Shown in pieces: positions 10,995 to 46,971 of a stretch of 48,147 nt of DNA. Source of the stretch: a phage. The position numbers and the translations under genes are program-made. Numbering within the stretch: the stretch's first letter is position 1; every line of letters begins with the position of its first letter. A model generated the notes under the pieces. It searched no databases. It saw only the letters and a list, made by a program, of their open reading frames with translations, and was not told the origin of the DNA. The stretch lies in sequence record PV636260.1; one strand, 5' to 3'.

Positions 10995-13868
10995 TTAGCC
11001 TCCTGTTTTTTCCTGAATGTAATTGTAAACCTCACCGCCCTGTGAACAAGACTCTCGAATCATTTTTTTGAACATCATTTCTACGCCCTGAGAAATTCCT
11101 CTCGGATCTGAACCGTTGTCAACTTTAACCTCCATGCCCCTAACATCAACGACCGTCCCGCCTGCTGATTGGTTCACTGCCTTCGGTGCGGATTTAGATG
11201 CGTTAAATCCAGATGTTGCAACACTACCAGCAGCGGCAGCAAGCGAGGTAACGGCGGCTCCTGAAGATAAAGACCTAAAACCAGAGGCGGCAGGCGTAGG
11301 GGTTGCCTGTGATGCCGCAGAAGCACCAGACGACGCCACTCCAGCAAAGCTCCACGTCTTACCGCCCATCATGCCTGAGATCGTATTGAATATTACCATC
11401 TGAGCAATCATCTTGATAATCATGCTAATGATGTTTTTCGCAAAGTCCTCAAAGTTTGCCTTACCTGTAGTAAGGAATTGGGTCATCATATCACTCATTC
11501 CGTTAAGTGAACTTGACGCGATATCATACACGTTGCCGTACATATCCATTGCAGAATCGCCGTAATCTGCAAATGCGCTTTCAGCACCAGCTAACCAGTC
11601 AGCGCGCTTGGCATCTTCCGCAGCATAGTAATCATTTTGTGCCTTGATCATGTTCTGGAGTTTTTCATCTCCTTCGCTGCCACCTGCATTAATATAGTCA
11701 GTGGTGATCTTAGCCAGCTCCGCTTGTCGTTCCATTTCTCGGGTGCTCATCCCGCGAGACGCGTTTAGCTGCTCTGTAGCTGCCGTCAAATCATTGACAA
11801 ATTTCAGTGATTTATCGGTAAGGGCGTTCAACTGCTGCTGCTTAACAATCTGATCGCCAATCTCAGCCTTTTGTTTCGCAAGCTCTAAAACCTTCTCTTG
11901 GTTTGCAAGTAGTGCTTTTTCTTCCGCAGATAACTGACGCTTAGAACTAGCTTCTCGAAGAACAGCAATCGTCGCCTCGGTCGTAAACAGTGCTTTTCTC
12001 TGTGCGGAAAGTTTTTGCCCAATCTCCTTGTGCTCTTGCAATACCTTAAGTTGAGCCTTGAGTGAAATTAACTCCTTGTCGAATTGCTCTGTCGGTGAGC
12101 GTACAATTTTCGACTGCTTATTTCTTTCTCGGTTTCGCTTCTCGATCTCTTCTGCTTCTTTCCTTATTGCCTCCTTAGTTTCCTCACTGTACTGCTTTTC
12201 AAGAGTTCGACGCTGCTTCATCGCTTCAATGTATCCCATCTCGCCTTTTTCTACGCGAGCGTTAATAGCATCAAGCTCTGAAGCCAACTGGTCGTAGTTG
12301 TCGCGAGAACTTTTTACGATGTTCTCCTGCTCCTTCAGTACATCAGCGCCGAAATCACTCATTCCAGGCAGTGACTGAGTTGCCTTTATGGCTGAGGCGA
12401 TAAAGTTTGAGATGTACTCATCACCCTTCGCTAGAATCATTTTGACCTGAATCACTGTACCCTGAACAACGTCGATAATCAGGTTTAGCGCCCCGAGTGT
12501 ATGATCACCAACCCATCCCCACGCGTCCGAAGCCCATTGTTTAATATCGCTCCACATCTTTTCCAGAGGGGTAGCGTTATCCGCGATCGACTTCATTCGC
12601 TTTTCCATTACGTCTGCGAATAGTTTGGTAGCCTCTGATACAGCCTCAGTTTCTCCTTTCGTCCGGCTTAATGTATCGATATAGGTAAGCTGCCCTTTTT
12701 CAAGGAAATTATATTGCTCGTTTAACTTCTTCAGACCTTTTACCGGATCGCTTGCGATTTTGTCGAACTCAGAAATAATTTGACTTGCTGACTTTCCTGT
12801 TGACGCTGACCACTCTGCGGTAGCCTTAGTGATGTTCTGGATCTGCTCGCGGGTGTACTTACCAGAACTTGCCAACTCCGTCACAATCTCGCGAATACTC
12901 CCAATGATTGAGTTGCTTGTCTGAGCCACCTTTTTAGCAACAGAATCAAGTTCTTCAGCCGTGACTCCTGCATAACCTCCAGTCTCAACAAGAGCCTTCT
13001 GCATATCAGTTATTGACTTGTAAGAGTCATAACCGGCTTTCGCAAGAAGGCCTAAAGAGCCGACAAGAACACCAACACCAACTGTGACCGGATTAATATA
13101 GCTGAGCAATACCTTAAATGTATTCCCGATCCCGCCGAACGAGTCCTTGATTTGACCGCCTTGCTGGATGGCAACCATCCAAACTGGCATACCGGACGCA
13201 AGAGATGTAACGACGTCGGTAATCTGCGCGGGAAGCATTCGCATTGCCTGCCTATATTGCCCAGCGCTAATACCTGCGGCATTCATAGCTCGACCCTGCT
13301 CTTTCAGTTTTGCGATCAGTGGCGCTGCTTCATTTGATAGTCCAAGCTGAGCCGCTTTCAGTTCCATTAACTCTGCGTGAGTTTTGCCAATAGCGTTAAC
13401 CTGACTGTTCAGGGAATCCATGAACGCTTTGTTTTTCGCTGCTGCCTGCTCTTTTGCTTTCGCTTCCTGCAATGCTGCCTGACCCTCTTCAGTAAGCATG
13501 GCTCGGCTACGAGCAAGTTTTGCATTTTGCATGTCCAGCATTTCACCCAAACGGAAAAATGTTTCATCTGGAACAACGCCCTTTTGCCAGAGTTTATCAA
13601 GCTGCTGAGATGCAATCTTCAGCCTTTCCATTTTTGATACTGTAGGATCGATTGCCTTTTCTACAGCCTCGTACTCTTTGCGCTGGCGCTTAAGTTGCTC
13701 AGCGTGTTCTTTAGCCTTCTGTTTTGCAACCTCGGCCTCATTGATTAAAGACCCCATAGAGTCAGCGGCTTGGTCGTTAGCTTTTGAAAACTCCTTCAAT
13801 GACTTGACGGCGCGCTGTACTGTCGACACATCAACGTCAAGCGATAGACCTGCTACCTTATCAACCAT
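10995..13868 (-). CDS. tail tape measure protein
   Basis: 957 aa, long coiled-coil Ala/Lys/Glu-rich regions, hydrophobic Gly-rich segment, position after G/GT. Confidence 0.9.
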
Positions 13869-14542: not shown

Positions 14543-14564
14543 GATATTTCTCCTGATTGGTTAA

Positions 14565-14583
14565 TGGCACTTTTTGTTAAAAG
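14565..14583 (+). promoter_or_regulatory. copy of the ATAGCAC...TAAAAC element (TGGCACTTTTTGTTAAAAG), plus-oriented within the minus-strand tail module
   Basis: 17/19 match to the repeated element; TACGAT 18 bp downstream. Confidence 0.4.
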
Positions 14584-18325: not shown

Positions 18326-18328
18326 ATA

Positions 18329-18348
18329 ATAGCACTTTTTGTTAAAGC
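18329..18348 (+). promoter_or_regulatory. copy of the repeated element (ATAGCACTTTTTGTTAAAGC), plus-oriented
   Basis: Sequence match; lies between decoration gene stop and capsid terminator. Confidence 0.4.
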
Positions 18349-26837: not shown

Positions 26838-26887
26838 GGTGACTATATCAAATCACCCCACCGACGTTTTAGCAATTAGTGCTATTT
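26838..26887 (-). promoter_or_regulatory. repeated element (ATAGCACTAATTGCTAAAAC) plus hairpin with -10-like TATAGT
   Basis: Stop codon TAG of the kinase gene lies inside the element; hairpin GGTGA-N10-TCACC. Confidence 0.55.
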
Positions 26888-28132: not shown

Positions 28133-28181
28133 GGGCACTATATCAAATGCCCTTGAGCAAGTTTTAGCAATTCGTGCTATT
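28133..28181 (-). promoter_or_regulatory. repeated element (ATAGCACGAATTGCTAAAAC) plus hairpin with TATAGT
   Basis: Hairpin GGGCA-N10-TGCCC; element abuts the stop codon of 28180..28626. Confidence 0.55.
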
Positions 28182-29050: not shown

Positions 29051-29689
29051 TTACATGATGAACAATAGCGAAATCGAAGCGACCAAGAGAACAATCGCAA
29101 TAGCCAGGCCAGACAAGTCTGCTTTCTCTTCAAACTTCAGTGCTGGCTTGCGGTCAGCATTAATAGGCTTGACGTTGCTAATCTTGCTGGTGTTGATCTT
29201 GCCGTTGGCGCGGAAGGTGCGCTTGCGCTTCTTGCCGAACGTTGCAAACTTAGTGCCGCCGCTATTCCAGCGAAGACCCTCTCCGTTGTGCGTTACGGTT
29301 GCAATGCGGTTGCGGCCCGTGTCGTCGGTAATTACAGCCGTGTGCTTAGCGTGCTCAGAGGGAACGTCGTAAATTTTGCCAACAGTAAATTTTTTGGTGT
29401 TATCGCTGATACATTCGAATTTCATAAATTTTACCTCTTTATTATGCAGTTGGTTGATTGCTTCGATTACGTCGTTAAATTTAACACCATCCACGATTCG
29501 ATGGAAGATATATTTTGAACTGCCGCCATACGGAAGGAAGATCTCCTGATATTCGTGACGCCGTACAACGTTTACGTTACTACCGTACTCATCAACTATA
29601 ACGAAGCTGTCGTCATTGACGCGAGCGCCTTCGTAGATTTTGCCGTACTTAAAACCAGATCCTATACTTGATACGCATTCAAATTTCAT
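29051..29689 (-). CDS. tail-anchored membrane protein with tandem duplicated domain
   Basis: Two repeats starting MKFEC(V/I)S...GKIY; basic linker; C-terminal TM helix LSGLAIAIVLLVASISLLFIM. Confidence 0.55.
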   Translation of the reverse strand: MKFECVSSIGSGFKYGKIYEGARVNDDSFVIVDEYGSNVNVVRRHEYQEIFLPYGGSSKYIFHRIVDGVKFNDVIEAINQLHNKEVKFMKFECISDNTKKFTVGKIYDVPSEHAKHTAVITDDTGRNRIATVTHNGEGLRWNSGGTKFATFGKKRKRTFRANGKINTSKISNVKPINADRKPALKFEEKADLSGLAIAIVLLVASISLLFIM

Positions 29690-30285: not shown

Positions 30286-30335
30286 AAGGCCACTATATCA
30301 AATGGCCTTGCGGAAGGTTTAGCAATTCGTGCTAT
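30286..30335 (-). promoter_or_regulatory. repeated element plus hairpin with TATAGT
   Basis: ATAGCACGAATTGCTAAAC; hairpin AAGGCCA-N10-TGGCCTT. Confidence 0.55.
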
Positions 30336-30481
30336 CGTTTAACACACATTGTTTTTACTTCGTATCCGAACGGCTTGTTTTCTGCAATTACTTCACGAGC
30401 TTTGTTACATGATTGCTGACTCTCCATGTATACGTGATCCGGCCCGGTGCTCATCAGTATAATCAATACCCATGCAGCCAT
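30332..30481 (-). CDS. 49-aa hypothetical protein with hydrophobic N-terminus (not in ORF track)
   Basis: TAATG coupling to upstream gene, RBS GGTGA; stop TAG is the TAG of the repeated element. Confidence 0.4.
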   Translation of the reverse strand: MAAWVLIILMSTGPDHVYMESQQSCNKAREVIAENKPFGYEVKTMCVKR

Positions 30482-31577: not shown

Positions 31578-31629
31578 GTGGTTACTATATCGCAACCACA
31601 TGATCGCGTTTTAACAAAAAGTGCTATTT
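31578..31629 (-). promoter_or_regulatory. repeated element (ATAGCACTTTTTGTTAAAAC) plus hairpin with TATAGT
   Basis: Hairpin GTGGTT-N10-AACCAC. Confidence 0.55.
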
Positions 31630-32441: not shown

Positions 32442-32489
32442 TTGTCTATACCTCGTTGTCTATGGTTGTAACTTTCAACTTCGAAAAAC

Positions 32490-32519
32490 ATGTTACAGCT
32501 ACAACGTCAGATGCGTCAA
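32490..32519 (-). promoter_or_regulatory. candidate sigma70-like leftward early promoter
   Basis: Minus strand TTGACG - 18 bp - TAACAT, about 50 nt upstream of the first gene. Confidence 0.35.
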
Positions 32520-32851
32520 TGTCTATAGCTGCATTTTTTATTTTTGTAACCAGTGCAACCGATGCAACCGACTTTTTCTATAAAAGTAAGAACATCTATT
32601 TATGCGCGCGGAATAGTATGTTTTTTATACTATGCATCACGAAATATATGCCACCCTCAAAAAATGCGGTTGCACCTATTACGCCGATTACATACCAATA
32701 TATAATATAATAAATAAATAAATATATATTATCTATCTTATTATTATATATAGATATTTTATTATCTATAGGCCTATCGATTCTCTGGCCATTTTGTAAC
32801 ACCCCTGATGGTATACAACTATTACGACAATTACAACTAACGCATAGACGA

Positions 32852-32871
32852 ATAGCACGTTTTGCTAAAAA
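32852..32871 (+). promoter_or_regulatory. copy of the repeated element within the large intergenic region (no obvious -10 at the usual spacing)
   Basis: ATAGCACGTTTTGCTAAAAA. Confidence 0.4.
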
Positions 32872-33221
32872 TGGAGATGACCACCAGGCGAACTGGGTAA
32901 CACTAAATCCCCCCTCTCACAATCATTGCAATCTAAGCAACAAATCAACCAACTGTTGCACACCATGCAACAATCACATTTCATCATTCGAGATCAATCA
33001 TGATCGTAATTATTCCAGATATTCCAGTATTGATGGAATAATGAGCAATTATTGGAATAGCATTTTTTGCCACACATCAGCCCTGCCGATCGGGTATGAT
33101 TCATCTCATCAACCAATCAGAGGAGATTTGCAGTGAAATTAATCTGGTCGCTATTCGACGGTTCCGGCCTTGCAGGTCATGAACTTAACTTTGCGCGATG
33201 TCTTCCGTTTTGAGGTGATGA

Positions 33222-33749
33222 ATGATTTGGCACGATTACTTTACATACAATCCGAAAACTGGAAAGCTGTTCTGGAAAGAAAGAAAAGATATACACAAAT
33301 CAAGAGTTAAACAATGGAATGCTCGCAATGCTGGTAATGAGGTTGGCTCTTTGGGTAGTGGTGGCAGATATTTAGAAACTACACTTACTGTAAACGGAAA
33401 ACGTTATAACCTGAAAGTTCATAGAATATGCTATGAAATGCACTATGGCCCAATACCTGAAGGAAAGGCGGTTGATCACGTAAATCACATCACGACTGAT
33501 AACAGAGCAATAAACTTTGAGTTAAAAGATCATAAAGGAAATATGCGAAACACATCAAAACAGAAAAACAATACAAGTGGCATACCAGGTGTGCATAAAA
33601 ATAAACATGGCAAATGGGTTGTAAGGATTGGAGGGGGAAAGCGAGGGAGGAGGATTTACATAGGGTGCTTCTCAAGTTTTGATGATGCGATTTCCGCAAA
33701 GAAAGCAGCTGAATATGAACATGGATACCATGAAAACCACGGCAAATAG
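33222..33749 (+). CDS. HNH endonuclease with C-terminal AP2 DNA-binding domain
   Basis: HNH core VDHVNHITTDNRAINFEL; AP2-like SGIPGVHKNKHGKWVVRI...IGCFSSFDDAISAKKAAEYEHG; RBS GAGGTGA. Confidence 0.7.
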   Translation: MIWHDYFTYNPKTGKLFWKERKDIHKSRVKQWNARNAGNEVGSLGSGGRYLETTLTVNGKRYNLKVHRICYEMHYGPIPEGKAVDHVNHITTDNRAINFELKDHKGNMRNTSKQKNNTSGIPGVHKNKHGKWVVRIGGGKRGRRIYIGCFSSFDDAISAKKAAEYEHGYHENHGK

Positions 33750-34023: not shown

Positions 34024-34209
34024 ATGAAAACGAAATTAGTGCATAAATCAGAAATCAAGATCGGCGATACTGTGATTCACAACGGAGAGCTTAAAACTGT
34101 TGGCAAGGAGTCAATAACCAAAGATGAATTTATGGGGTTATTGTTGTTCGGGGACTCCTATCGACTTGGTTACAAAATGGTTGAGCTTGTTGAAGATGTA
34201 AAATTCTAA
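34024..34209 (+). CDS. hypothetical protein
   Basis: ORF; stop followed directly by the repeated element. Confidence 0.5.
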   Translation: MKTKLVHKSEIKIGDTVIHNGELKTVGKESITKDEFMGLLLFGDSYRLGYKMVELVEDVKF

Positions 34210-34259
34210 ATAGCACTTTTTGCTAAACGAAAATGCGGGAGGGCTGCTATAGTTCTCCC
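34210..34259 (+). promoter_or_regulatory. repeated element (ATAGCACTTTTTGCTAAAC) plus hairpin with TATAGT
   Basis: Hairpin GGGAG-N13-CTCCC with TATAGT in the loop, then RBS GAGGTAA. Confidence 0.55.
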
Positions 34260-35632: not shown

Positions 35633-35842
35633 ATGGAACGGGATAATTTCTGGACTCGTTATTTTGCCGCTCTTGATGCCGGGCTTAGTGCGGAATGGTG
35701 TATCAAGGTTGCATATAAGGAAATCACACTTGAGGACGCGCTAGGAAATATGGATATGGACGCAGAAAGCGAATATAATCCAAACTTCGAGTTACCTGGC
35801 GATGATATTGATGAGGACGACGACGATTATATTCCCTGGTAA
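35633..35842 (+). CDS. small highly acidic protein
   Basis: C-terminus PGDDIDEDDDDYIPW; 69 aa. Confidence 0.5.
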   Translation: MERDNFWTRYFAALDAGLSAEWCIKVAYKEITLEDALGNMDMDAESEYNPNFELPGDDIDEDDDDYIPW

Positions 35843-35892
35843 ATAGCACGATTTGTTAATATTGCCGTAAGGTCATTTGATAAAGTGACCTT
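35843..35892 (+). promoter_or_regulatory. repeated element (ATAGCACGATTTGTTAATA) plus hairpin with TAAAGT
   Basis: Hairpin AAGGTCA-N10-TGACCTT. Confidence 0.5.
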
Positions 35893-35922
35893 ATTCAAGA
35901 TAACCAATCAGGAGTTAATGCG

Positions 35923-36339
35923 ATGAAATCAATCAAACTGAAATGTACTTACGCCGATAAAATCACAGGATTTGAAATTAACAACCTATACAAAGGTCGA
36001 GAGCGTTTCGATGGCACTCGCGAAGTAAAATTAAAATGCGGCAAGTATTTAAAACTTGAAAAGCATGATGAATTACAGATTCACGGATCTGATGAAATCT
36101 TCTTCGCGAAGTTCACTGAGTTGAAAACAAAGACGCTCAAGTGCACCGGGCTTGACCATCGCAACCCAATGAAAAAATCATTCAAAGTTGGCAAGCGTTA
36201 CCAGGTTGAAAGCGGTCGCGCTCTCGGTGGAGTAGCTGGTTACATCTTTGATGAAGATGGTTGTCGCTGGACCTTATTTCGCGAAGAGGTTGGTTTTAGT
36301 ATCGCAGACGGCACAAACTTTGAGGCCAAATACTTATAA
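35923..36339 (+). CDS. hypothetical protein
   Basis: RBS CAGGAG. Confidence 0.55.
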   Translation: MKSIKLKCTYADKITGFEINNLYKGRERFDGTREVKLKCGKYLKLEKHDELQIHGSDEIFFAKFTELKTKTLKCTGLDHRNPMKKSFKVGKRYQVESGRALGGVAGYIFDEDGCRWTLFREEVGFSIADGTNFEAKYL

Positions 36340-36342
36340 CCA

Positions 36343-36394
36343 ATAGCACTTTTTGCAAAACGCGTGTACCATTGGCGGTGTATCATTCACACCG
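36343..36394 (+). promoter_or_regulatory. repeated element (ATAGCACTTTTTGCAAAAC) plus hairpin with TATCAT
   Basis: Followed by RBS AAAGGAG and start at 36416. Confidence 0.5.
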
Positions 36395-36415
36395 TCAACA
36401 AAGGAGTTTATTGTG

Positions 36416-37984
36416 ATGTTTAATATTAAGCCAAAACTGAATTACCAACAGATTATTGAGATCGCAAATAGCACTGGAGTTAATCCGGTGGCGATCGCAA
36501 TTCGTGAAAACAGCTATGGGGATTCAGTTTCGTTTTGGCAAGATCCGATCGATATAAACAGTGGAAACGATAAGTTCCCGCTGATTTCGTTAGGTGGCGA
36601 TAACCTGGTATTCGAATATGCAAAGGCAAAGGCTGAGTCTGTACAGTTCCCTGTTTCGTCTGCGTACGCTCATTTCATTGGGTGCATCTCAGCCGCGATG
36701 CTCGGGAAGTTTTGGGTGCAATATCACGGAGAAGAGCAACCGACAGCTCTTTACATGGTGATTAGCCAGCCACCTTCAACGGGTAAATCCGCGATTAACT
36801 CAGCGGCAATTACACCTATGCGTGCAGAGATTCAGCGACTGAATGAAGAGCGAAAAAAGGAACGTATCCGCTTAACCAGTCAGCTACGTCAGGTCGAGAA
36901 GGAAATTAAAAACGACCCGAAGGGTAACACGACGGCGGCGCTGTACGAGGACAAAGAAAAACTGGAAGAGAAGATCAAGAAGATGGCTGATATTGTTTTC
37001 GCGGTATCAGATCCTACACCTGAAGGTCTAGCGAAGGTAGCTGCTGTTCAAGGTCATTTCTCCGTAATCTCTGATGAGGCGACAGCAATCAATACATTGC
37101 TCGGCCTGACTTATGGTGGTTCAGACAAGAAATCAAATAGTGAGCTTATCCTTAAGGCGTGGGATAAAAACCATATGGAGGTGGCGCGTTCCAACCAGGA
37201 TAACAACTTGTCCCTTTGCCCGGTCGGTTCCATCTGCGTTATTGCGCAAGATGAAACAATCAAGGGCATCATGGACGCAGGCCAACGAGGCATCGGCGTA
37301 TCTGAGCGTTTCCTTTTAGTTCGTGAGGAACCGCTTTTAGGTACTCGTATTCTTTGTGATGAAAATGGTGATGCGCTGTATAAGGAAGTCGATCGAGGAT
37401 TGGTGAGTAAATATTATCGACTCGTGCACAACATCATGAAAGAGGATAACGTTGTTCTCTATGTAAGCCGTAATGCTATGCGTGAATTAAACCTTGCGCG
37501 TCAGGCGATGGAACCGGATTTCGCCGCAGGTGGGAAATACTCTCACTCAATGCTACGCGGTCATCTCGGCAAGTTCGATAAGCACGCCTTGCGTATTGCT
37601 TCAGTTCTCCACACGATCAAGAATTGGGAGGGTGAATCACCGAACCGTTCCAACCGTGAGATTGACCTTGAAACAATGCAAGAAGCGATCATGATTTTCA
37701 ATGAGCTTTCCAGGACTTATCTGTCGTCTGCCAGCGCTGCCGGGTATGCTGGTGATGAGGCTGAATCTCGTAAGCTGATTGATGTTATCACTGAGATCGC
37801 AAAGAAGAATAAAGGGCGCGCTCCTATTCATAGCATCGTTGCAAAGTGCCGGAACGTTACGCCGTTCAACGGTCAACAGAAAGTATCTGAGCGAATCGAC
37901 AGCCTGCTGATCACGCTCGAAGAGATGAACTACACTTGCCGCATTGATGATATTGTTTTCATCAATCCTAGACTGATGGGTTAA
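36416..37984 (+). CDS. putative ATPase with degenerate Walker A (QPPSTGKS)
   Basis: Start moved to ATG 36416 after AAAGGAG; the track start 36353 lies inside the regulatory element. Confidence 0.55.
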   Translation: MFNIKPKLNYQQIIEIANSTGVNPVAIAIRENSYGDSVSFWQDPIDINSGNDKFPLISLGGDNLVFEYAKAKAESVQFPVSSAYAHFIGCISAAMLGKFWVQYHGEEQPTALYMVISQPPSTGKSAINSAAITPMRAEIQRLNEERKKERIRLTSQLRQVEKEIKNDPKGNTTAALYEDKEKLEEKIKKMADIVFAVSDPTPEGLAKVAAVQGHFSVISDEATAINTLLGLTYGGSDKKSNSELILKAWDKNHMEVARSNQDNNLSLCPVGSICVIAQDETIKGIMDAGQRGIGVSERFLLVREEPLLGTRILCDENGDALYKEVDRGLVSKYYRLVHNIMKEDNVVLYVSRNAMRELNLARQAMEPDFAAGGKYSHSMLRGHLGKFDKHALRIASVLHTIKNWEGESPNRSNREIDLETMQEAIMIFNELSRTYLSSASAAGYAGDEAESRKLIDVITEIAKKNKGRAPIHSIVAKCRNVTPFNGQQKVSERIDSLLITLEEMNYTCRIDDIVFINPRLMG

Positions 37985-37988
37985 TGAT

Positions 37989-38396
37989 ATGCTGCTTCTT
38001 TTAGATCTGTTCAGGTTCTGCGAAGGTTACGACAAATACACTCGACAGCACATAGCGAAATTTATATACGCCCACAAGGAAAGTGAGCGATTTGCTAAGG
38101 CCGCAGGAATGACTCGTCGTGAATTTACAAGCGCGCTATCTAAGGAGTTTTGCTCACGCTGTGTAACTGAGGGTTATCTTGATTGCAGGGATGGGTTTTA
38201 CTGGTGCAAGGGAAAGATTAAGCGCCCGGTAATGATGAAGCTGATGTGTATTGATGGCTACAACAATCGGTATACGTGGGAAATGATGCACATTGGAGAG
38301 ATGAGTGATGAGGATTTGTTTGGCGAACGTAGAAACATTGATAGATCGGAACGTCGAATTGTGCGCAAGGCTCCAGCTTACGAAAGAAGAATTTGA
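37989..38396 (+). CDS. hypothetical Cys-rich protein
   Basis: CSRCVTEGYLDCRDGFYWCKGK cysteine cluster. Confidence 0.5.
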   Translation: MLLLLDLFRFCEGYDKYTRQHIAKFIYAHKESERFAKAAGMTRREFTSALSKEFCSRCVTEGYLDCRDGFYWCKGKIKRPVMMKLMCIDGYNNRYTWEMMHIGEMSDEDLFGERRNIDRSERRIVRKAPAYERRI

Positions 38397-38508
38397 GCAA
38401 GGGTTGTTGAGTCTGTTGCTCACTTCAATGAGGGCCAGTAACGAAAGCGAGCATAATCTTTGCGACCAGGAGGGGGAGTTACTACTTAACGTAAAAAGGT
38501 ACAAATAA
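38308..38508 (+). CDS. hypothetical protein (uncertain, overlaps the 3' end of the previous gene out of frame)
   Basis: RBS GGAGAG before ATG; ends at the bidirectional terminator. Confidence 0.3.
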   Translation: MRICLANVETLIDRNVELCARLQLTKEEFEQGLLSLLLTSMRASNESEHNLCDQEGELLLNVKRYK

Positions 38509-38509
38509 C

Positions 38510-38535
38510 AAAGGAGGCTAAGCCTCCTTTTTTTC
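38510..38535. terminator. bidirectional intrinsic terminator closing the rightward block and the lysis cassette
   Basis: AGGAGGCTAAGCCTCCT + T7; hairpin spans the spanin stop codon. Confidence 0.75.
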
Positions 38536-38922
38536 GTCCTTACGAAGTGAAAAATAAACCAGCAATAGACCGATAAAAACGAGAATCCAGCCAACGATAG
38601 CATCGTACCAGTTTTCCGGTTTTGTTACTGTGATGCTTTCAGCGTTAACCGTGTTAGCCTTAATGGTTGACACTTCAATTGACTTCTTCAAGGAAGAGTC
38701 AATCTTTCCTACATTGGACTTCTCAACTTTAACATCTCGCTTATCTTCGGATTTTGCGGTTACTCCTGCTAATTGCTTTGTGTTCTCCTCTCCGATTTGT
38801 GCTGTAACTTCCGGTTTAGATCCGATTAAACCGCTCAGGGCAGATGCCGTCGAACAACCGGATAGGGAAATAACGCCAACAGCCACTGCAATCGCAATGC
38901 ACGTTTTCTTCAGTTTCATCAT
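38518..38922 (-). CDS. unimolecular spanin (u-spanin)
   Basis: N-terminal lipoprotein signal with lipobox LSGC and a C-terminal TM helix ([16 protein letters not shown]); the topology described for T1 gp11. Confidence 0.75.
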
Positions 38923-39407
38923 AATTCCTTAACGCAATACGCGTATTCTTCAGCGCGTCGGTTCTTTAGTCCTCTAGACACTTCGCGCTTTTTGGTTTTT
39001 GGGTTGTAGTAGTATACCCATCGCCATAACTGATTGCACGCTTCCTTGTGCTTACTCTGATTTATTAGCTTAAGCATTGTAGAAGATCCGAACGCGCCAG
39101 TACCGACGTTGAAAGTGAAACTGTACAGTGACGCGCGCATCGTTACCGGAATATCAACATTCACCTTTTTGTCAACGTATCGCTGAGCGACTACGATATG
39201 TTTTATCAGCAATGCATCGCATTCTCGCTTAGTGTATTTCTTGCCAGGTATGACGTCCGGCCCGGTTATTCCGCTGCATACTGTAGGGACTCCGGCTATA
39301 TCGTAATACACCTCGTATTCTATCCCTTCGATTCGTTCCAGTAGTGTAGGTGTCAACGTCAAAGCGGCCCCGATCGATGCGCCTATAACGTTATTTTTTA
39401 AGCTCAT
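38919..39407 (-). CDS. SAR-type endolysin, glycoside hydrolase family 24 lysozyme
   Basis: N-terminal weakly hydrophobic Gly/Ala-rich segment; catalytic motif E-G-x(5)-Y-x-D-x(2)-G-x(2)-T-x(3)-G. Confidence 0.75.
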
Positions 39408-39622
39408 TATCTCCCCCTGATCTTAAGCGCCTTATTTAGATCGCCATCGTTTAACGCTTCCTGAATCGCCTTACTATCACGATACTTCCAGTATGCTCCC
39501 CAAGCGCCAAAAAGCAGAAAGCAAATGAATGTAGCGCCAGCAATGTAAAGTTGCCCGGTAGCGGCCCCGACTAATGAAGCGCCGCCAGTGCTGGACGTCG
39601 CAGCTGTTAAAAATTCTTTCAT
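39407..39622 (-). CDS. holin (71 aa, probably pinholin type)
   Basis: Start at ATG 39622 after GGTGAG; two hydrophobic segments and a charged C-terminus; 1-nt overlap with endolysin. Confidence 0.65.
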
Positions 39623-39656
39623 AATCTCACCATATATTTTTTGAACAAGTGAGTCG

Positions 39657-39685
39657 ATTTTAACCTTCAAATTTATTTGATACAA
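39657..39685 (-). promoter_or_regulatory. sigma70-type promoter for the lysis cassette
   Basis: Minus strand TTGTAT - 17 bp - TAAAAT, about 35 nt upstream of the holin ATG. Confidence 0.5.
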
Positions 39686-42961: not shown

Positions 42962-43002
42962 GCCAGATTCCATTCCGGCATGTTTAGCAAAAAGTGCTAT
43001 TT
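42962..43002 (-). promoter_or_regulatory. repeated element (ATAGCACTTTTTGCTAAAC) plus hairpin upstream of dam
   Basis: TAG stop of the VRR-NUC gene lies within the element. Confidence 0.5.
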
Positions 43003-43413
43003 CATCATTTCGTATATTGCGATCTTGAATTGCTCAAATCCGTATGCAACGGCAGAGAATCCACCGCGATCCCGAACCTTTTTGAGAAACTCCCTTTGCT
43101 TATCGCTGACTGGTGACGCCTTTCCCTTGCCGGACTTATTAACCCGTTTGAGTTCGATAGCTGCGAACGGGTAACGTGAGTTTACACCAATCAGGATAAC
43201 GAAATCTGAAACACCTTTAAGTAATCCAGCCTGCTCATCCCTGAGTGCTGAAGTGATTGTTTTTTCACCTTCATTTACAGTGTGCCAAAATAGAAGGTGT
43301 GGAAAGTTGTATTTCAGCCAGGAAACGCAATCTACCTGATGAGCGTCCTCCTTTCTAGTGTCGCTAGGATCTCGATCGTAAAACTCTAAGTAATCGCCTT
43401 TATCTGTAATCAT
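42997..43413 (-). CDS. VRR-NUC domain nuclease
   Basis: Motifs VSDFVIL and AIELKR typical of VRR-NUC; ATGA coupling with helicase. Confidence 0.65.
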   Translation of the reverse strand: MITDKGDYLEFYDRDPSDTRKEDAHQVDCVSWLKYNFPHLLFWHTVNEGEKTITSALRDEQAGLLKGVSDFVILIGVNSRYPFAAIELKRVNKSGKGKASPVSDKQREFLKKVRDRGGFSAVAYGFEQFKIAIYEMMK

Positions 43414-45422
43414 TCCGGGATATCCTCCATACCGAAGTCTTTGCGTGAGATAATATCTTCTTTCTTCTGGTTGCGACGATGAGTTACGCGTACCGGGTGA
43501 GCGATATGATGTGCGTACTGCACGATCTTGATGGCGTTCTTCATTCCGATAAAGTAGCGACGCATTTTAGGATCTGACACATGAGGAAGTACACCTTTAG
43601 TTTTCCATAGCGTACCGCAAATCTTAGAGTCAGACTCGGGGAAGAATTTTTCATACGCCTTGAACTCATCACCATCGTCGTTAATCAGCATGTATTTGTA
43701 TATTATGCCTTTCTGGTTTTTGGTTAGCGTAACTTCAAAATTCTTTACCTCGTACCAGTCATTCTTAGTGTACGCCTTACCGGACAACTTCAGGTTCGGA
43801 TCGACAAGTGAGACATCACAACAACGACAGACTCGGGCCACAACGTCATTCTCTGCACCGCATCCTTTAACAAGGATTTTTCCGGTGCGCTCGTCAACCT
43901 GGTCCTCACAAATCTGAGAAGTCCAGAAATGATCGCAACGTTCACCATCAATGACATTAACGCATCGTCGAGCATAGAAGCTATTTACGCAACCGCATTT
44001 CGGACATTTTTTCGGATCTTTGCCATTTTCAAAACGCTTTTGGAATTGCGCCTGCTCAAGTATAGGATCGAAATAAAGCTGCCCCAACTCATCCATCGTG
44101 CCTGCGAAATCCCATACAAGATGATCTTGCTTAACCATTCCTTCAGCAACCTGCCAGGATTTAAGAAGTCGCATACCCCTACCCAAAAGCTGAATCAGCA
44201 AGGTAAGAGATCCTATCTTGCGAAGTATTACACTAAAATCCCAATTTGGAACGTTAACGCCAGTAGTTAGCGCCATGACTTGAAAGGTGTATTTAATTTT
44301 CCCGGCCCTCACATCATCAAGAATCTTCTTGCGCGTTTTAGTGTCTGTGTCGCCAGTAATAATTGCATATGTGCTTCCTGGTGGTAGTGCCGCCGCCGCC
44401 TCTTTGCAGTGACGCACACCAGCGCATGTAATCAGAACTGCGTTACGCTCTTCAGCCTTTTTGGCAACCATTTGCATGATTCGCTGAGTAAGAGATTTAT
44501 CATGAAGGATCTCATCTTCCATTGCCTTCATATCTTTCTCTGTAAAGTCCTGTACACCATCCTCGCTTGATGCCTTAAATTTATCAAGATCGTAGTGAAC
44601 TCCGTCCGTAGAACCGAATATAGTCGGAACGACTGAGCCAAACTCAATAAGGTAGTTGGTGTCTATATCAGTAACGCGCTCACGCCAGAATCCTAACGCC
44701 TTTGGATTCTCAACAAGAATAGGAACTACGCCCCTAAATTCAGATCCGGTCATACCAAATATTCTAAGGTCGTGACCGTGAACCTGTTTACAGCGTCGCA
44801 TCATTTCCATGATTACGATCGTGTACTGACTGCGCTTAGTTCCAAGAAGAGGCTTTCCATCATTACCAATCAGAGGAGTATCACCGTCCATGATAATTTT
44901 CCCTTTCTCTCCCCGCATCTGTTCCATCGTTTCCTTGCCTTCGATAGCTTGCGCAAGGTCTTCCCAATCCACCTGGTGACATTCATCGATCCCGATTACG
45001 TGAGGGACAAAATCAGATAACTCATTATTTAGACCATTTGCAACAGTTCCCTCAGATCCAACCACGATAGGGAAGTAGCAAGACTTGATTCCAAGTGACG
45101 CTGAGAATATAGAGTTAGTCACCCCGAAATTGTCGATCTCTTCACTATCCTGATCGACAATCTCACCCTGGCGTGCCAGAACAAGCATTTTCAAGCCCAT
45201 TTTTTGACACTGCTTTGCAACCATAGCAAAAATGATGGTCTTACCCGCAGATACTGACGCTTTAACAAAGAATGGATGCTCGTAATTTGACAGGCGTTTC
45301 GCGATCTCGGCATAAGCAACAACCTGGTACGGATAAGGAACAACCTCACCAACAGTAAATCGCTCCTGAGTTCGCTTTATGTAGTCCTCGCCAAGTAATG
45401 CAATCTGTTTTTTAATGTTCAT
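43410..45422 (-). CDS. SF2 DNA helicase (DEAD/DEAH-like) with C-terminal Cys-rich zinc-binding region
   Basis: Walker A VSAGKT, DEAH-like GIDECHQ, C-terminal CPKCGC...C...C cluster; start ATG 45422 (GTG 45428 possible). Confidence 0.8.
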   Translation of the reverse strand: MNIKKQIALLGEDYIKRTQERFTVGEVVPYPYQVVAYAEIAKRLSNYEHPFFVKASVSAGKTIIFAMVAKQCQKMGLKMLVLARQGEIVDQDSEEIDNFGVTNSIFSASLGIKSCYFPIVVGSEGTVANGLNNELSDFVPHVIGIDECHQVDWEDLAQAIEGKETMEQMRGEKGKIIMDGDTPLIGNDGKPLLGTKRSQYTIVIMEMMRRCKQVHGHDLRIFGMTGSEFRGVVPILVENPKALGFWRERVTDIDTNYLIEFGSVVPTIFGSTDGVHYDLDKFKASSEDGVQDFTEKDMKAMEDEILHDKSLTQRIMQMVAKKAEERNAVLITCAGVRHCKEAAAALPPGSTYAIITGDTDTKTRKKILDDVRAGKIKYTFQVMALTTGVNVPNWDFSVILRKIGSLTLLIQLLGRGMRLLKSWQVAEGMVKQDHLVWDFAGTMDELGQLYFDPILEQAQFQKRFENGKDPKKCPKCGCVNSFYARRCVNVIDGERCDHFWTSQICEDQVDERTGKILVKGCGAENDVVARVCRCCDVSLVDPNLKLSGKAYTKNDWYEVKNFEVTLTKNQKGIIYKYMLINDDGDEFKAYEKFFPESDSKICGTLWKTKGVLPHVSDPKMRRYFIGMKNAIKIVQYAHHIAHPVRVTHRRNQKKEDIISRKDFGMEDIPE

Positions 45423-45441
45423 TGTCACGGCTATTAATCCT

Positions 45442-45488: not shown

Positions 45489-45510
45489 GTTTTTAGCAAA
45501 AAGTGCTATA
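45489..45510 (-). promoter_or_regulatory. repeated element (ATAGCACTTTTTGCTAAAAAC) upstream of the helicase
   Basis: Its -10-like TATTAT is the complement of the plus-strand TATAAT region. Confidence 0.5.
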
Positions 45511-46035: not shown

Positions 46036-46971
46036 GTGAACGAAGAATTTATGATGTTTCAGAAAGAGGACGTTTTGCCGTACATGAAGGGGTTATGGCG
46101 CGAGGCTTTCCAATCAATCTGCGGATTGCCGAATGATGTTTTTAATAAGAAGCACCAACCTTGCCCCAACTGCGGCGGTAAAGACCGCTTTCGCTGGACC
46201 GATAACTTAAACACTCCTGGCGACGGCGGCGCGATCTGCAACTCATGCGGGAACGACTCCGGGATCGGGTGGCTAATGAAATTAACTGGTATGCCGTACA
46301 GTGAATGTATAAACATCCTGGGGAGATTTCTCGGCAAGGTTCCGCAGGAATACATTGTTAAGGCAAACAAGAAAGCACGCAGGACTCCGGTATCTGGTGT
46401 CAATGTCATGATGGCAGATCATGAAGCGGTGATGAAAGTCATGGAGCGTACAGAGAAGCGCGTAAACACACCTCTAAGCATGTTTGAATCTCTACCTACT
46501 GAATCATTCGACGTTGGCGTAAAACGTCGCGAGGATGGCGGCGAGAGCGTATTTCACACCATACCATGTCAACTTGTACACGAGGACGGTCTTGATGATG
46601 AGTTTTGTAATATTTTGATTATTGATGAGGAGGGTAGGGAGTCATTTTACGCTAAGAAATACACAAGTTGCTCGGTTGCCGTGACTGGTAAAACAGAAAA
46701 AGCGATCTACTTATGCCTTAATTGGATTGATGCTCAGCATATTGCATTTCACACAAAGCAAGAGGTATGGGCCTGCTTCACTCCTGAGAATCTGGAAATG
46801 GTTGCATACAGATATAAAGGGGATCGAGAAGTAAGGGTTGCGTGCGAACCTTCAGACAAGGAGACTTTATACATGGCAGACGACCGACAATTAAAAATAA
46901 TCATCCCAAATCCTGGAGGATACCGCTCAGGAATGCAAGCCAAGTTATTCTCAGCAAGTGACCTACTCTGA
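46036..46971 (+). CDS. DNA primase with N-terminal zinc-binding domain
   Basis: CPNCGG...CNSCGN zinc ribbon; acidic IIDEEG motif; next to the helicase. Confidence 0.7.
   Translation: MNEEFMMFQKEDVLPYMKGLWREAFQSICGLPNDVFNKKHQPCPNCGGKDRFRWTDNLNTPGDGGAICNSCGNDSGIGWLMKLTGMPYSECINILGRFLGKVPQEYIVKANKKARRTPVSGVNVMMADHEAVMKVMERTEKRVNTPLSMFESLPTESFDVGVKRREDGGESVFHTIPCQLVHEDGLDDEFCNILIIDEEGRESFYAKKYTSCSVAVTGKTEKAIYLCLNWIDAQHIAFHTKQEVWACFTPENLEMVAYRYKGDREVRVACEPSDKETLYMADDRQLKIIIPNPGGYRSGMQAKLFSASDLL

Follow-up and report, generated by a model that had tools for sequence, protein, structure and literature searches.

The gp4 protein of phage T7 consists of a RecA-type SF4 helicase fused to a primase. 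The DUF3987 family has been proposed to comprise SF6 replicative helicases of phages (PMC4889955). [quoted passage not shown] Among the T1-like phages, the TLS paper describes T1 and TLS as lacking a polymerase gene, and reports the DR repeat aaATAGCACnnnTTGnTAAAA ~76 nt ahead of start codons in TLS, T1, Rtp, and Rogue1 (PMC11447400).

The window analyzed here is the whole 48,147-nt stretch of phage DNA (sequence record PV636260.1), and represents the nearly complete genome of a T1-like phage (Tunavirus, Drexlerviridae). The cassette of interest contains the counterparts of the T1 genes ST7 (138 aa), ST9 (the large ORF), and ST10 (135 aa), and we consider it likely that it forms the distal end of a rightward transcription unit, with a core gene encoding the replication-fork helicase of the phage. 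Its genes and their terminator are as follows.

35923–36339, plus strand: 138-aa basic protein (pI 9.2), homologue of T1 ST7; phrog_2684 (E=5e-53), function unknown
36416–37984, plus strand: DUF3987-family MCM-like (SF6) AAA+ helicase, 522 aa, 58 kDa, homologue of T1 ST9
37989–38396, plus strand: 135-aa basic protein (pI 9.2), homologue of T1 ST10, winged helix at residues ~15–75
38305–38508, plus strand: 67-aa acidic protein; phrog_9539 (E=7.6e-29)
38510–38530, no strand assigned: bidirectional intrinsic terminator, 9-bp stem with T-runs on both strands

The ORFs of 138, 523, and 135 amino acids that the earlier note described are present. The length of the large ORF depends on the start codon: it is 522 residues from ATG 36416, 523 residues (the count in that note) from GTG 36413, and 543 residues from TTG 36353, the mechanically longest version.

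The large ATPase is a conserved, previously annotated DNA helicase of T1-like coliphages, and is already known. It is 99.4% identical to T1 ST9, which bears the RefSeq label “DNA helicase”, and it matches the PHROG “DNA helicase” with E=3e-233. The Pfam DUF3987 profile (PF13148) is matched over positions 2–355 of 364 with a score of 145.1 bits (cut-off, 27 bits; E=4e-42); in this family, 5,775 cluster representatives were matched at E-values up to 0.001. The guess that the protein might be a replication-associated NTPase is thus borne out by the DUF3987 match, the T1 label, and the published work on the family (PMC4889955, PMC11724360), and the ATPase falls within a housekeeping replication family, the outcome that the earlier note had set against its own reading.

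The structure model of the helicase (pLDDT 86, pTM 0.84) is predicted to contain an N-terminal helical domain (residues ~1–95), an AAA+ core with the MCM-type fold (~96–310), a lid (~327–442), and a C-terminal winged helix (~447–522). The Pfam MCM profile (PF00493) did not match the protein at E-values up to 1, and the model predicts helices for the first 95 residues; therefore, we regard the helicase as MCM-like rather than as an MCM proper. As compared to the archaeal and eukaryotic MCMs (SF6), with which it shares 10–14% identity, it lacks the N-terminal OB-fold/zinc domain, has a long helical hairpin (~122–189) inserted after the P-loop helix, and starts its Walker A motif with Gln. The PDB yielded nothing in sequence searches, either with the single helicase sequence or with the profiles of the helicase, the 135-aa protein, and the 138-aa protein, indicating that the helicase family has no solved structure detectable by sequence comparison.

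The DUF3987 helicases of phages and mobile elements, such as the PriCT-DUF3987 protein AgaPH, have in common with the present helicase the AAA+ core followed by a small C-terminal winged-helix domain, as well as the Walker A Lys and the Walker B Glu, both conserved, and its relatives are fused to primases or have them as gene neighbors. Unlike AgaPH, which has 5′-3′ polarity, the present helicase has no fused PriCT or primase domain, and its N-terminus is the helical domain of ~95 residues, while the primase, of the DnaG/T7 type, is encoded on its own at a distance of 8 kb. The present helicase would be expected to perform the task of T7 gp4 at the fork, and the primase of the window shares homology with the primase half of proteins of the gp4 type; in contrast, the helicase belongs to the AAA+ (SF6-like) proteins, is unrelated to that of gp4, and is separately encoded.

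Which protein unwinds the replication fork in this phage? Several relatives of the DUF3987 helicase are fused to replication domains, including the DnaG zinc ribbon (P0158, P0247), the DnaB N-terminal domain (P0185), and the NrS-1 polymerase domain (P0255). In a relative with 35% identity, the helicase gene lies beside genes for a primase, an SF2 helicase, a DUF3799 exonuclease, ERF, and SSB. The window itself encodes the following primase, which is not adjacent to the helicase gene.

46036–46971, plus strand: primase of 311 aa carrying a zinc ribbon of the T7 gp4 type (Pfam Zn_Ribbon_Prim, E=5.6e-16), without the helicase half

The match of this primase to phrog_510 (“DNA primase”) is confined to profile positions 6–321 of 667. 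Since the relatives are linked to primases by fusion or adjacency, and the T1-type primase lacks the helicase half, the best reading of the DUF3987 protein is that of the fork helicase, and the 311-aa primase is its probable functional partner. For the T1-type DUF3987 protein, we infer helicase activity and ring formation: the protein would form a ring on DNA, in which ATP is hydrolyzed at the subunit interfaces and R298 acts in trans, and would unwind the fork for the primase, which has a gene of its own. It would work with the host DNA polymerase III, because the T1-type phages encode no polymerase.

Alternatively, the 672-aa SF2 helicase (43410–45428) could drive the fork, and the DUF3987 protein would then be an initiator or origin-melting ATPase, or a motor for recombination or restart. 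The SF2 helicase gene is next to the primase gene in the window, and the TLS paper names the SF2 protein beside the primase as the replication helicase (PMC11447400). However, the SF2 gene is also directly upstream of a VRR-NUC nuclease gene. We take this pairing to point to fork remodeling or recombination, rather than to a ring helicase. As for an initiator, the winged-helix MCM-like AAA+ proteins include ORC and Cdc6, and both were found among the winged-helix structural matches, but over its full length the DUF3987 protein is best matched in structure by MCM motors, and not by ORC or Cdc6. In addition, its relatives are fused to primase and DnaB N-terminal domains at the position of a replicative helicase, and one member of the family unwinds DNA (PMC11724360). 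We therefore consider this alternative unlikely. The likely fork helicase is the DUF3987 protein, and not the SF2 helicase assumed in the TLS paper, a distinction that is easily overlooked in T1 annotations.

The helicase, 135-aa, and 138-aa proteins are carried by 926, 836, and 824 phage records, respectively. Their genes belong to the core, and their order is kept in more than 800 Drexlerviridae records from several genera and hosts. The terminator at 38510–38530 ends both the rightward unit and the lysis genes that run toward it, and the T1 record annotates a rho-independent terminator at the homologous position. The tight linkage claimed for the three genes holds for the helicase and 135-aa genes, which are 4 nt apart, but not for the 138-aa gene, which ends 76 nt before the helicase gene begins and is separated from it in T1 by an HNH endonuclease gene between ST7 and ST9. 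NCBIfam searches with the cassette proteins yielded no useful match, and the single Rfam match, sraA, scored 26 bits, below the family threshold of 56.

The suggestion that the cassette is an accessory host-takeover or anti-defense module accounts for its location in a block of small early-type genes without assigned functions, and for the 138-aa, 135-aa, and 67-aa proteins, which likewise have no assigned function. Nevertheless, the helicase, 135-aa, and 138-aa genes are core genes in a conserved order, unlike the variable accessory genes, and the PADLOC defense models did not match three of the cassette proteins and gave only an insignificant LmuB match for the helicase (E=0.0028), with no domain passing the threshold. 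Moreover, the ATPase is a member of a family of replication helicases, and more distant relatives carry its gene inside a module together with genes for a primase, an SF2 helicase, an exonuclease, ERF, and SSB. We consider an accessory module of this kind in the cassette highly improbable, and no support for it was found; as the ATPase is an annotated MCM-like DUF3987 helicase, the cassette is best seen as common replication machinery rather than as a new host-takeover or anti-defense system. The statement that no function is apparent no longer applies to the ATPase, while it still describes the 138-aa protein and, for the most part, the 135-aa protein, for which only the fold is known.

The elements of the putative active site were assigned as follows.

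36761–36790, plus strand: Walker A/P-loop ISQPPSTGKS, residues 116–125, from the sequence
37064–37081, plus strand: putative Walker B strand VISDEA, residues 217–222 (modeled strand 214–219)
37238–37312, plus strand: putative sensor-1 VIAQDE (275–280) and candidate arginine finger in SERF (296–299), by analogy with MCM

The first Gly of the Walker A motif is indeed replaced, by Gln in ISQPPSTGKS, as the earlier note had observed, but its description as degenerate does not hold. Gln118 is conserved in 255 of the 259 relatives, and K124 and a Ser or Thr at position 125 are present in all 259, while some relatives have QPPGTAKS or QPSGTSKS, with Ala or Ser replacing the second Gly. Judging from this alignment, the motif is a strictly conserved family variant starting with Gln. 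The unusual P-loop was thus a false lead, being conserved as the hallmark of a large MCM-like family of phage helicases. We do not regard the Walker B assignment as canonical, because the Asp preceding E221 is not conserved: position 221 is Glu in 263 of 263 relatives, and position 220 is Asp in 162, Ala in 62, and Ser in 32. Farther along, Q278 and R298 are kept in 260 and 262 of 263 relatives, respectively. A predicted β-hairpin (residues 254–267), which holds the essentially invariant R258 (264/266), precedes the sensor-1/SERF region; the order of these three elements was taken from the modeled secondary structure. SERF resembles the SRF motif of MCM. The helicase appears to retain every residue expected for ATP hydrolysis: K124, S125, E221, and R298. 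That the ATPase has decayed into a pseudo-enzyme without catalytic activity is scarcely credible: the P-loop QPPSTGKS does deviate from GxxxxGK[ST] by the loss of the first Gly and the Asp of the putative Walker B is variable, but the Gln is kept even in distant fusion proteins, and its conservation, together with the near invariance of K124, S/T125, E221, and R298, indicates purifying selection on the active site.

The cassette genes had also been credited with regulatory elements of their own, and promoter-like elements do precede two of them.

35842–35892, plus strand: promoter-like element before the 138-aa gene, with DR AATAGCACGATTTGTTAA at 35842–35859, −10-like TAAAGT at 35881–35886, and a hairpin at 35869–35892
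36342–36398, plus strand: promoter-like element before the helicase gene, with DR AATAGCACTTTTTGCAAA at 36342–36359, −10-like TATCAT at 36381–36386, and a hairpin at 36372–36398

However, these are two copies of a genome-wide and Drexlerviridae-wide repeat, and are not specific to the cassette. The repeat AATAGCAC-NN-TTTG-Y-W-AA occurs 18 times in the window, as compared to 0.20 copies expected by chance in the motif search. The DR element also precedes the helicase gene in T1 (L006 2679–2695) and in Vibrio phage Vc1 (L008 8929–8945). The DR repeat has the dyad symmetry TAGCA-N5-TGCTA, with its center ~42 bp upstream of the hairpin-embedded −10-like hexamers, and the spacing between the repeat and the hexamer is fixed at 21 nt. 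The hairpin at 35869–35892, with the stem AAGGTCA/TGACCTT, surrounds TAAAGT and has a predicted energy of −15.4 kcal/mol (z=−5.0). In T1 and Vc1, the stems of the hairpins at the helicase gene differ in sequence and are still complementary. The repeat in the excerpted TLS description is identical in sequence and orientation to the two cassette copies, and the dyad, the fixed 21-nt spacing, and the hairpins with varying complementary stems go beyond that description (PMC11447400).

We rejected a classical promoter model for these intergenic elements, because the TTGCTA-like hexamer sits 22 nt from the −10-like hexamer. A scan of the sequence for sigma-70 promoters found 11 sites, against 10.8 in shuffled sequence, and thus no excess. 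A sigma-54 reading of TAGCAC...TTGC was also rejected, as its spacing is 2 nt shorter than what we take to be the consensus.

The 135-aa protein model (pLDDT 83) has three helices followed by a β-hairpin wing, which is a winged-helix DNA-binding fold. C-terminal to the winged helix are the acidic SDE(D/E)LFG motif, which is conserved, and a tail of basic character. The 135-aa gene starts 4 nt past the helicase stop codon, and the two are therefore probably translationally coupled; the gene is directly downstream of the helicase gene in both of the other genera checked. The protein is Cys-rich in its composition, as claimed, with six Cys (4.4%) versus 1.15% in the window ORFs of at least 150 aa, but only C87 is invariant in the homologues, while C55, C58, C66, and C73 are replaced in the alignment. 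Since the cysteines are not conserved, and the alignment shows no conserved CxxC...C...C ligand set, we rejected a zinc finger or zinc ribbon. We also rejected the idea that the protein arose by copying of the winged helix in the helicase (hhalign probability 0.3%). BFVD matches of the model to a “DNA primase” and a “Helicase” of Vibrio phage Vc1 were discarded, as the current Vc1 record has the helicase and 135-aa genes apart, without such a fusion.

The gene order, fold, and charge suggest that the 135-aa protein would most likely be a DNA-binding accessory of the helicase, acting in loading or in anchoring to the origin or DNA. We propose only tentatively, and with considerable doubt, that it is a dedicated partner of the MCM-like helicase (a loader or origin anchor), in loose analogy to the winged-helix licensing factors of MCM, or else a factor that binds the DR element. 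The main alternative to the accessory role is that of a transcription factor. No homologues of the 135-aa or 138-aa proteins were found beside the more distant DUF3987 genes. If the 135-aa protein does bind DR, then it would define an unstudied promoter class controlling most T1-type genes.

The 138-aa and 67-aa proteins are conserved neighbors of the helicase. The conserved domain of the 138-aa protein is its C-terminal ~75 residues in the alignment; the protein has no match in Pfam, NCBIfam, or the PDB, and a suspected internal duplication was not significant (hhalign probability 8.7%). Positions 35923–38508 also contain a fourth gene, encoding the 67-aa protein, which shares ~90 nt with the 3′ end of the 135-aa gene, is read in the +1 frame relative to it, and is absent from the T1 RefSeq annotation. 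Past the 135-aa stop codon, the 67-aa frame differs from T1 by 11 synonymous and five non-synonymous codon changes, as compared to 1:14 and 0:15 in the other frames, and the final 81 nt of the overlap contain no substitutions relative to T1. In Vibrio phage Vc1, the homologue of the 67-aa gene overlaps likewise.

The central protein of the cassette is already known: it is annotated in a classical phage, and the helicase family to which it belongs has been described. The region 35800-38600 shares 93-97% DNA identity with T1, DELF2, Sfin-1, LeonhardEuler and other Tunavirus genomes, and the counterparts in the T1 RefSeq annotation are ST7 (138 aa), ST9 (“DNA helicase”) and ST10 (135 aa). The observation of the earlier note is confirmed, with corrections, and its interpretation is half right. 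The three open reading frames lie where it placed them, and its length of 523 aa for the large protein is true from the GTG at 36413, with 522 aa from the adjacent ATG at 36416. This protein matches Pfam DUF3987 with 145 bits (cut-off, 27) and PHROG 2373 “DNA helicase” with E=3e-233. When 1.84 billion cluster representatives were searched with a profile, 5,775 relatives had E-values of at most 0.001, 371 of them no higher than 1e-30. The proposed replication-associated NTPase thus belongs to a described replication helicase family.

DUF3987 has been assigned to the MCM-related SF6 helicases, with a winged helix at the C-terminus (PMC4889955), and our analysis independently reproduces this assignment. 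The AlphaFold model, built from 19 input sequences, is confident (pLDDT 86, pTM 0.84). An MCM proper is ruled out: the protein has no Pfam MCM match, searching PDB by sequence or by profile gave no match, and its N-terminal 95 residues are helical in the model, without the OB-fold/zinc domain of MCM.

The P-loop ISQPPSTGKS is present at residues 116-125 (36761-36790), and the earlier note called it a degenerate Walker A. We examined 268 helicase-family sequences (close homologues and profile-search matches, aligned to the profile from alignment A1), counting in each column only the sequences with a residue there. Gln occupies the first P-loop position in 255 of 259 relatives, and K124 and a Ser/Thr at 125 are present in all 259. 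Similarly conserved are E221 of VISDEA (263/263), R298 of SERF (262/263), Q278 (260/263) and R258 (264/266). The near-invariance of Gln, K124, Ser/Thr125, E221 and R298 rules out a decayed Walker A, and the conservation pattern shows an active site that is presumably working, with a family-specific signature rather than decay. In some relatives, AKS or SKS replaces GKS, a type of deviation also found in MCM P-loops. The one genuine departure from the canonical pattern is the variable residue preceding E221 (D in 162, A in 62, S in 32).

The predicted order of elements is strand 113-117, the P-loop, a long helical hairpin (122-189), strand 214-219, D220-E221, a beta-hairpin (254-267), strand 270-277, SERF and strand 300-303. 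This order fits an AAA+ core that carries a pre-sensor-1 hairpin plus an arginine finger, the individual motifs being assigned from secondary-structure order and conservation rather than from model coordinates. The candidate arginine finger in SERF resembles the MCM SRF motif.

Where does this helicase act? The T1-type gene set is complete in the 48-kb window, and its relevant features are as follows.

Minus strand: structural genes
38510-38530: 9-bp bidirectional terminator, closing the unit of cassette genes
38518-39685: holin, endolysin and spanin block
42997-43413: VRR-NUC nuclease, directly downstream of the SF2 helicase
43410-45428: SF2 helicase
46036-46971, plus strand: zinc-ribbon primase, 311 aa
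Also encoded in the window: Dam methyltransferase, ERF recombinase, PDDEXK exonuclease

The DUF3987 protein is most likely the phage fork helicase, on the basis of domain fusions, gene neighbourhood, a half primase, the missing polymerase and the biochemistry of a related protein. Two relatives, the close P0158 (468 bits) and P0247, carry a fused DnaG-type zinc ribbon, while P0185 is fused to a DnaB N-terminal domain and P0255 to the NrS-1 polymerase helical domain. In a phage contig with a 35%-identical helicase, the gene directly adjoins those for a zinc-ribbon primase, an SF2 helicase, a DUF3799 exonuclease, ERF and SSB; in T1-type genomes, the lysis genes split that same replication module. 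We read the window primase as probably equivalent to the primase half of gp4-type proteins, with the helicase half absent, because it aligns with positions 6-321 only of the 667-position primase profile phrog_510. According to PMC11447400, neither T1 nor TLS encodes a DNA polymerase, and the phage must therefore provide the helicase and primase that work ahead of the host polymerase. Moreover, a PriCT-DUF3987 protein acts in vitro as a 5'-3' DNA helicase and binds its own primase-polymerase, and mutation of Walker A or B abolishes its activity (PMC11724360).

The main rival for this role is the SF2 helicase, which is next to the primase and which the TLS paper takes as the fork helicase (PMC11447400). 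However, the SF2 helicase gene lies directly upstream of the VRR-NUC nuclease gene. Such a pairing would suggest fork remodelling or recombination instead. Nothing supports the ATPase as part of a host-takeover or anti-defence module, the other half of the earlier interpretation, against which stand its core-gene status, its replication family and a sole, insignificant PADLOC match.

The 138-aa and 67-aa proteins, on the other hand, could conceivably be anti-defence or host-takeover factors, though nothing positive points that way. Phage records with a tblastn match number 926 for the helicase, 836 for the 135-aa protein and 824 for the 138-aa protein, and all three are core genes of Drexlerviridae; beside more distant DUF3987 genes, no homologues of the two small proteins were found. 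Searches placed the 138-aa protein in no family and found it no relative in PDB; comparison with itself showed no significant internal repeat. Its conservation is confined to the C-terminal 75 residues, and Vibrio phage Vc1 encodes a part like these upstream of its helicase gene. A 212-aa phrog_10580 protein (29051-29689, minus strand) is a weak paralogue among the window ORFs (E=2.9e-5), and both proteins weakly match phrog_14592.

The 135-aa protein is Cys-rich, as previously noted (6 Cys, 4.4% versus 1.15% in the window's long ORFs). The 67-aa gene (38305-38508, plus strand) overlaps the final ~90 nt of the gene for this protein in the +1 frame, as does the homologue in Vc1, and is absent from the T1 RefSeq annotation. 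Compared with T1, the final 81 nt of the overlap are without substitution, and 11 synonymous and 5 non-synonymous codon changes lie past it. The 135-aa model also matched two Vc1 entries in BFVD, A0A6M5CCU5 and A0A6M5CB08, over ~55 residues at 35-36% identity. These are named “DNA primase” (529 aa) and “Helicase” (345 aa), whereas the helicase and 135-aa genes are separate in the current Vc1 record, with no such fusion.

The linkage described as tight is so for the helicase and 135-aa genes, 4 nt apart; the 138-aa and helicase genes are 76 nt apart. Regulatory elements were also claimed for the cassette, and one copy of the motif AATAGCAC-NN-TTTG-Y-W-AA indeed precedes each of the 138-aa and helicase genes. 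With 18 copies in the window versus 0.20 expected, however, the element is a feature of the whole genome, not of the cassette. Examples are as follows.

26869-26886, 28164-28181, 30319-30336, 31611-31628, 42984-43001, 45493-45510, minus strand: DR copies
34209-34226, 35842-35859, 36342-36359, plus strand: DR copies
14563-14580, 18328-18345, plus strand: DR copies antisense to the surrounding genes, inside the minus-strand structural block, without the usual downstream hairpin

This repeat is the known DR element of phage TLS, given in PMC11447400 as aaATAGCACnnnTTGnTAAAA, ~76 nt upstream of start codons, and also present in T1. To this element we add a dyad, a fixed spacing and a variable-stem hairpin. 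The dyad, read from the sequence, is TAGCA-N5-TGCTA. A -10-like hexamer (TAnnnT or CATnAT) begins exactly 21 nt past the motif in 12 of 16 strict copies, or 14 if two weaker hexamers are included. This spacing places the dyad centre at about -42, a position associated with class II activators; the TTGCTA-like hexamer, separated from the -10 by 22 nt, is too distant to serve as a classical -35 element. Overall, the arrangement resembles that of a promoter whose activator would bind near -42. The -10-like hexamer is located in the loop of a hairpin or next to it, and the stem varies from copy to copy yet stays complementary (z down to -7.5); the same holds between the orthologous helicase promoters of the window (GGCGGTGT/ACACCGTC), T1 (GACGGTGT/ACGCCGTC) and Vc1 (GATGCCG/CGGCATC).

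The insertions that differ between close relatives are small and mobile. In T1, the interval from ST7 to ST9 (2213-2752 of its record, L006) holds ST8, an HNH endonuclease gene; the matching interval of the window (36340-36415) lacks it, and an HNH gene is found at 33222-33749 instead. In LeonhardEuler (L001, about 11700-12002), an additional DR element and a 71-aa gene are inserted just ahead of the terminator, a pattern suggesting that small genes move along with their own DR element.

Finally, between the leftward block of genes and the rightward one lies a stretch (32442 to about 33130) without a plausible gene. Its features are a patch of ~28% GC (32690-32770), TGCAACCG-type short repeats and an inverted repeat of 33 nt (32545-32577 and 32660-32692). 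The region 32442-33221, especially 32540-32770, lies 3.7 kb upstream of the helicase gene and may be a replication origin or a region of divergent early promoters.
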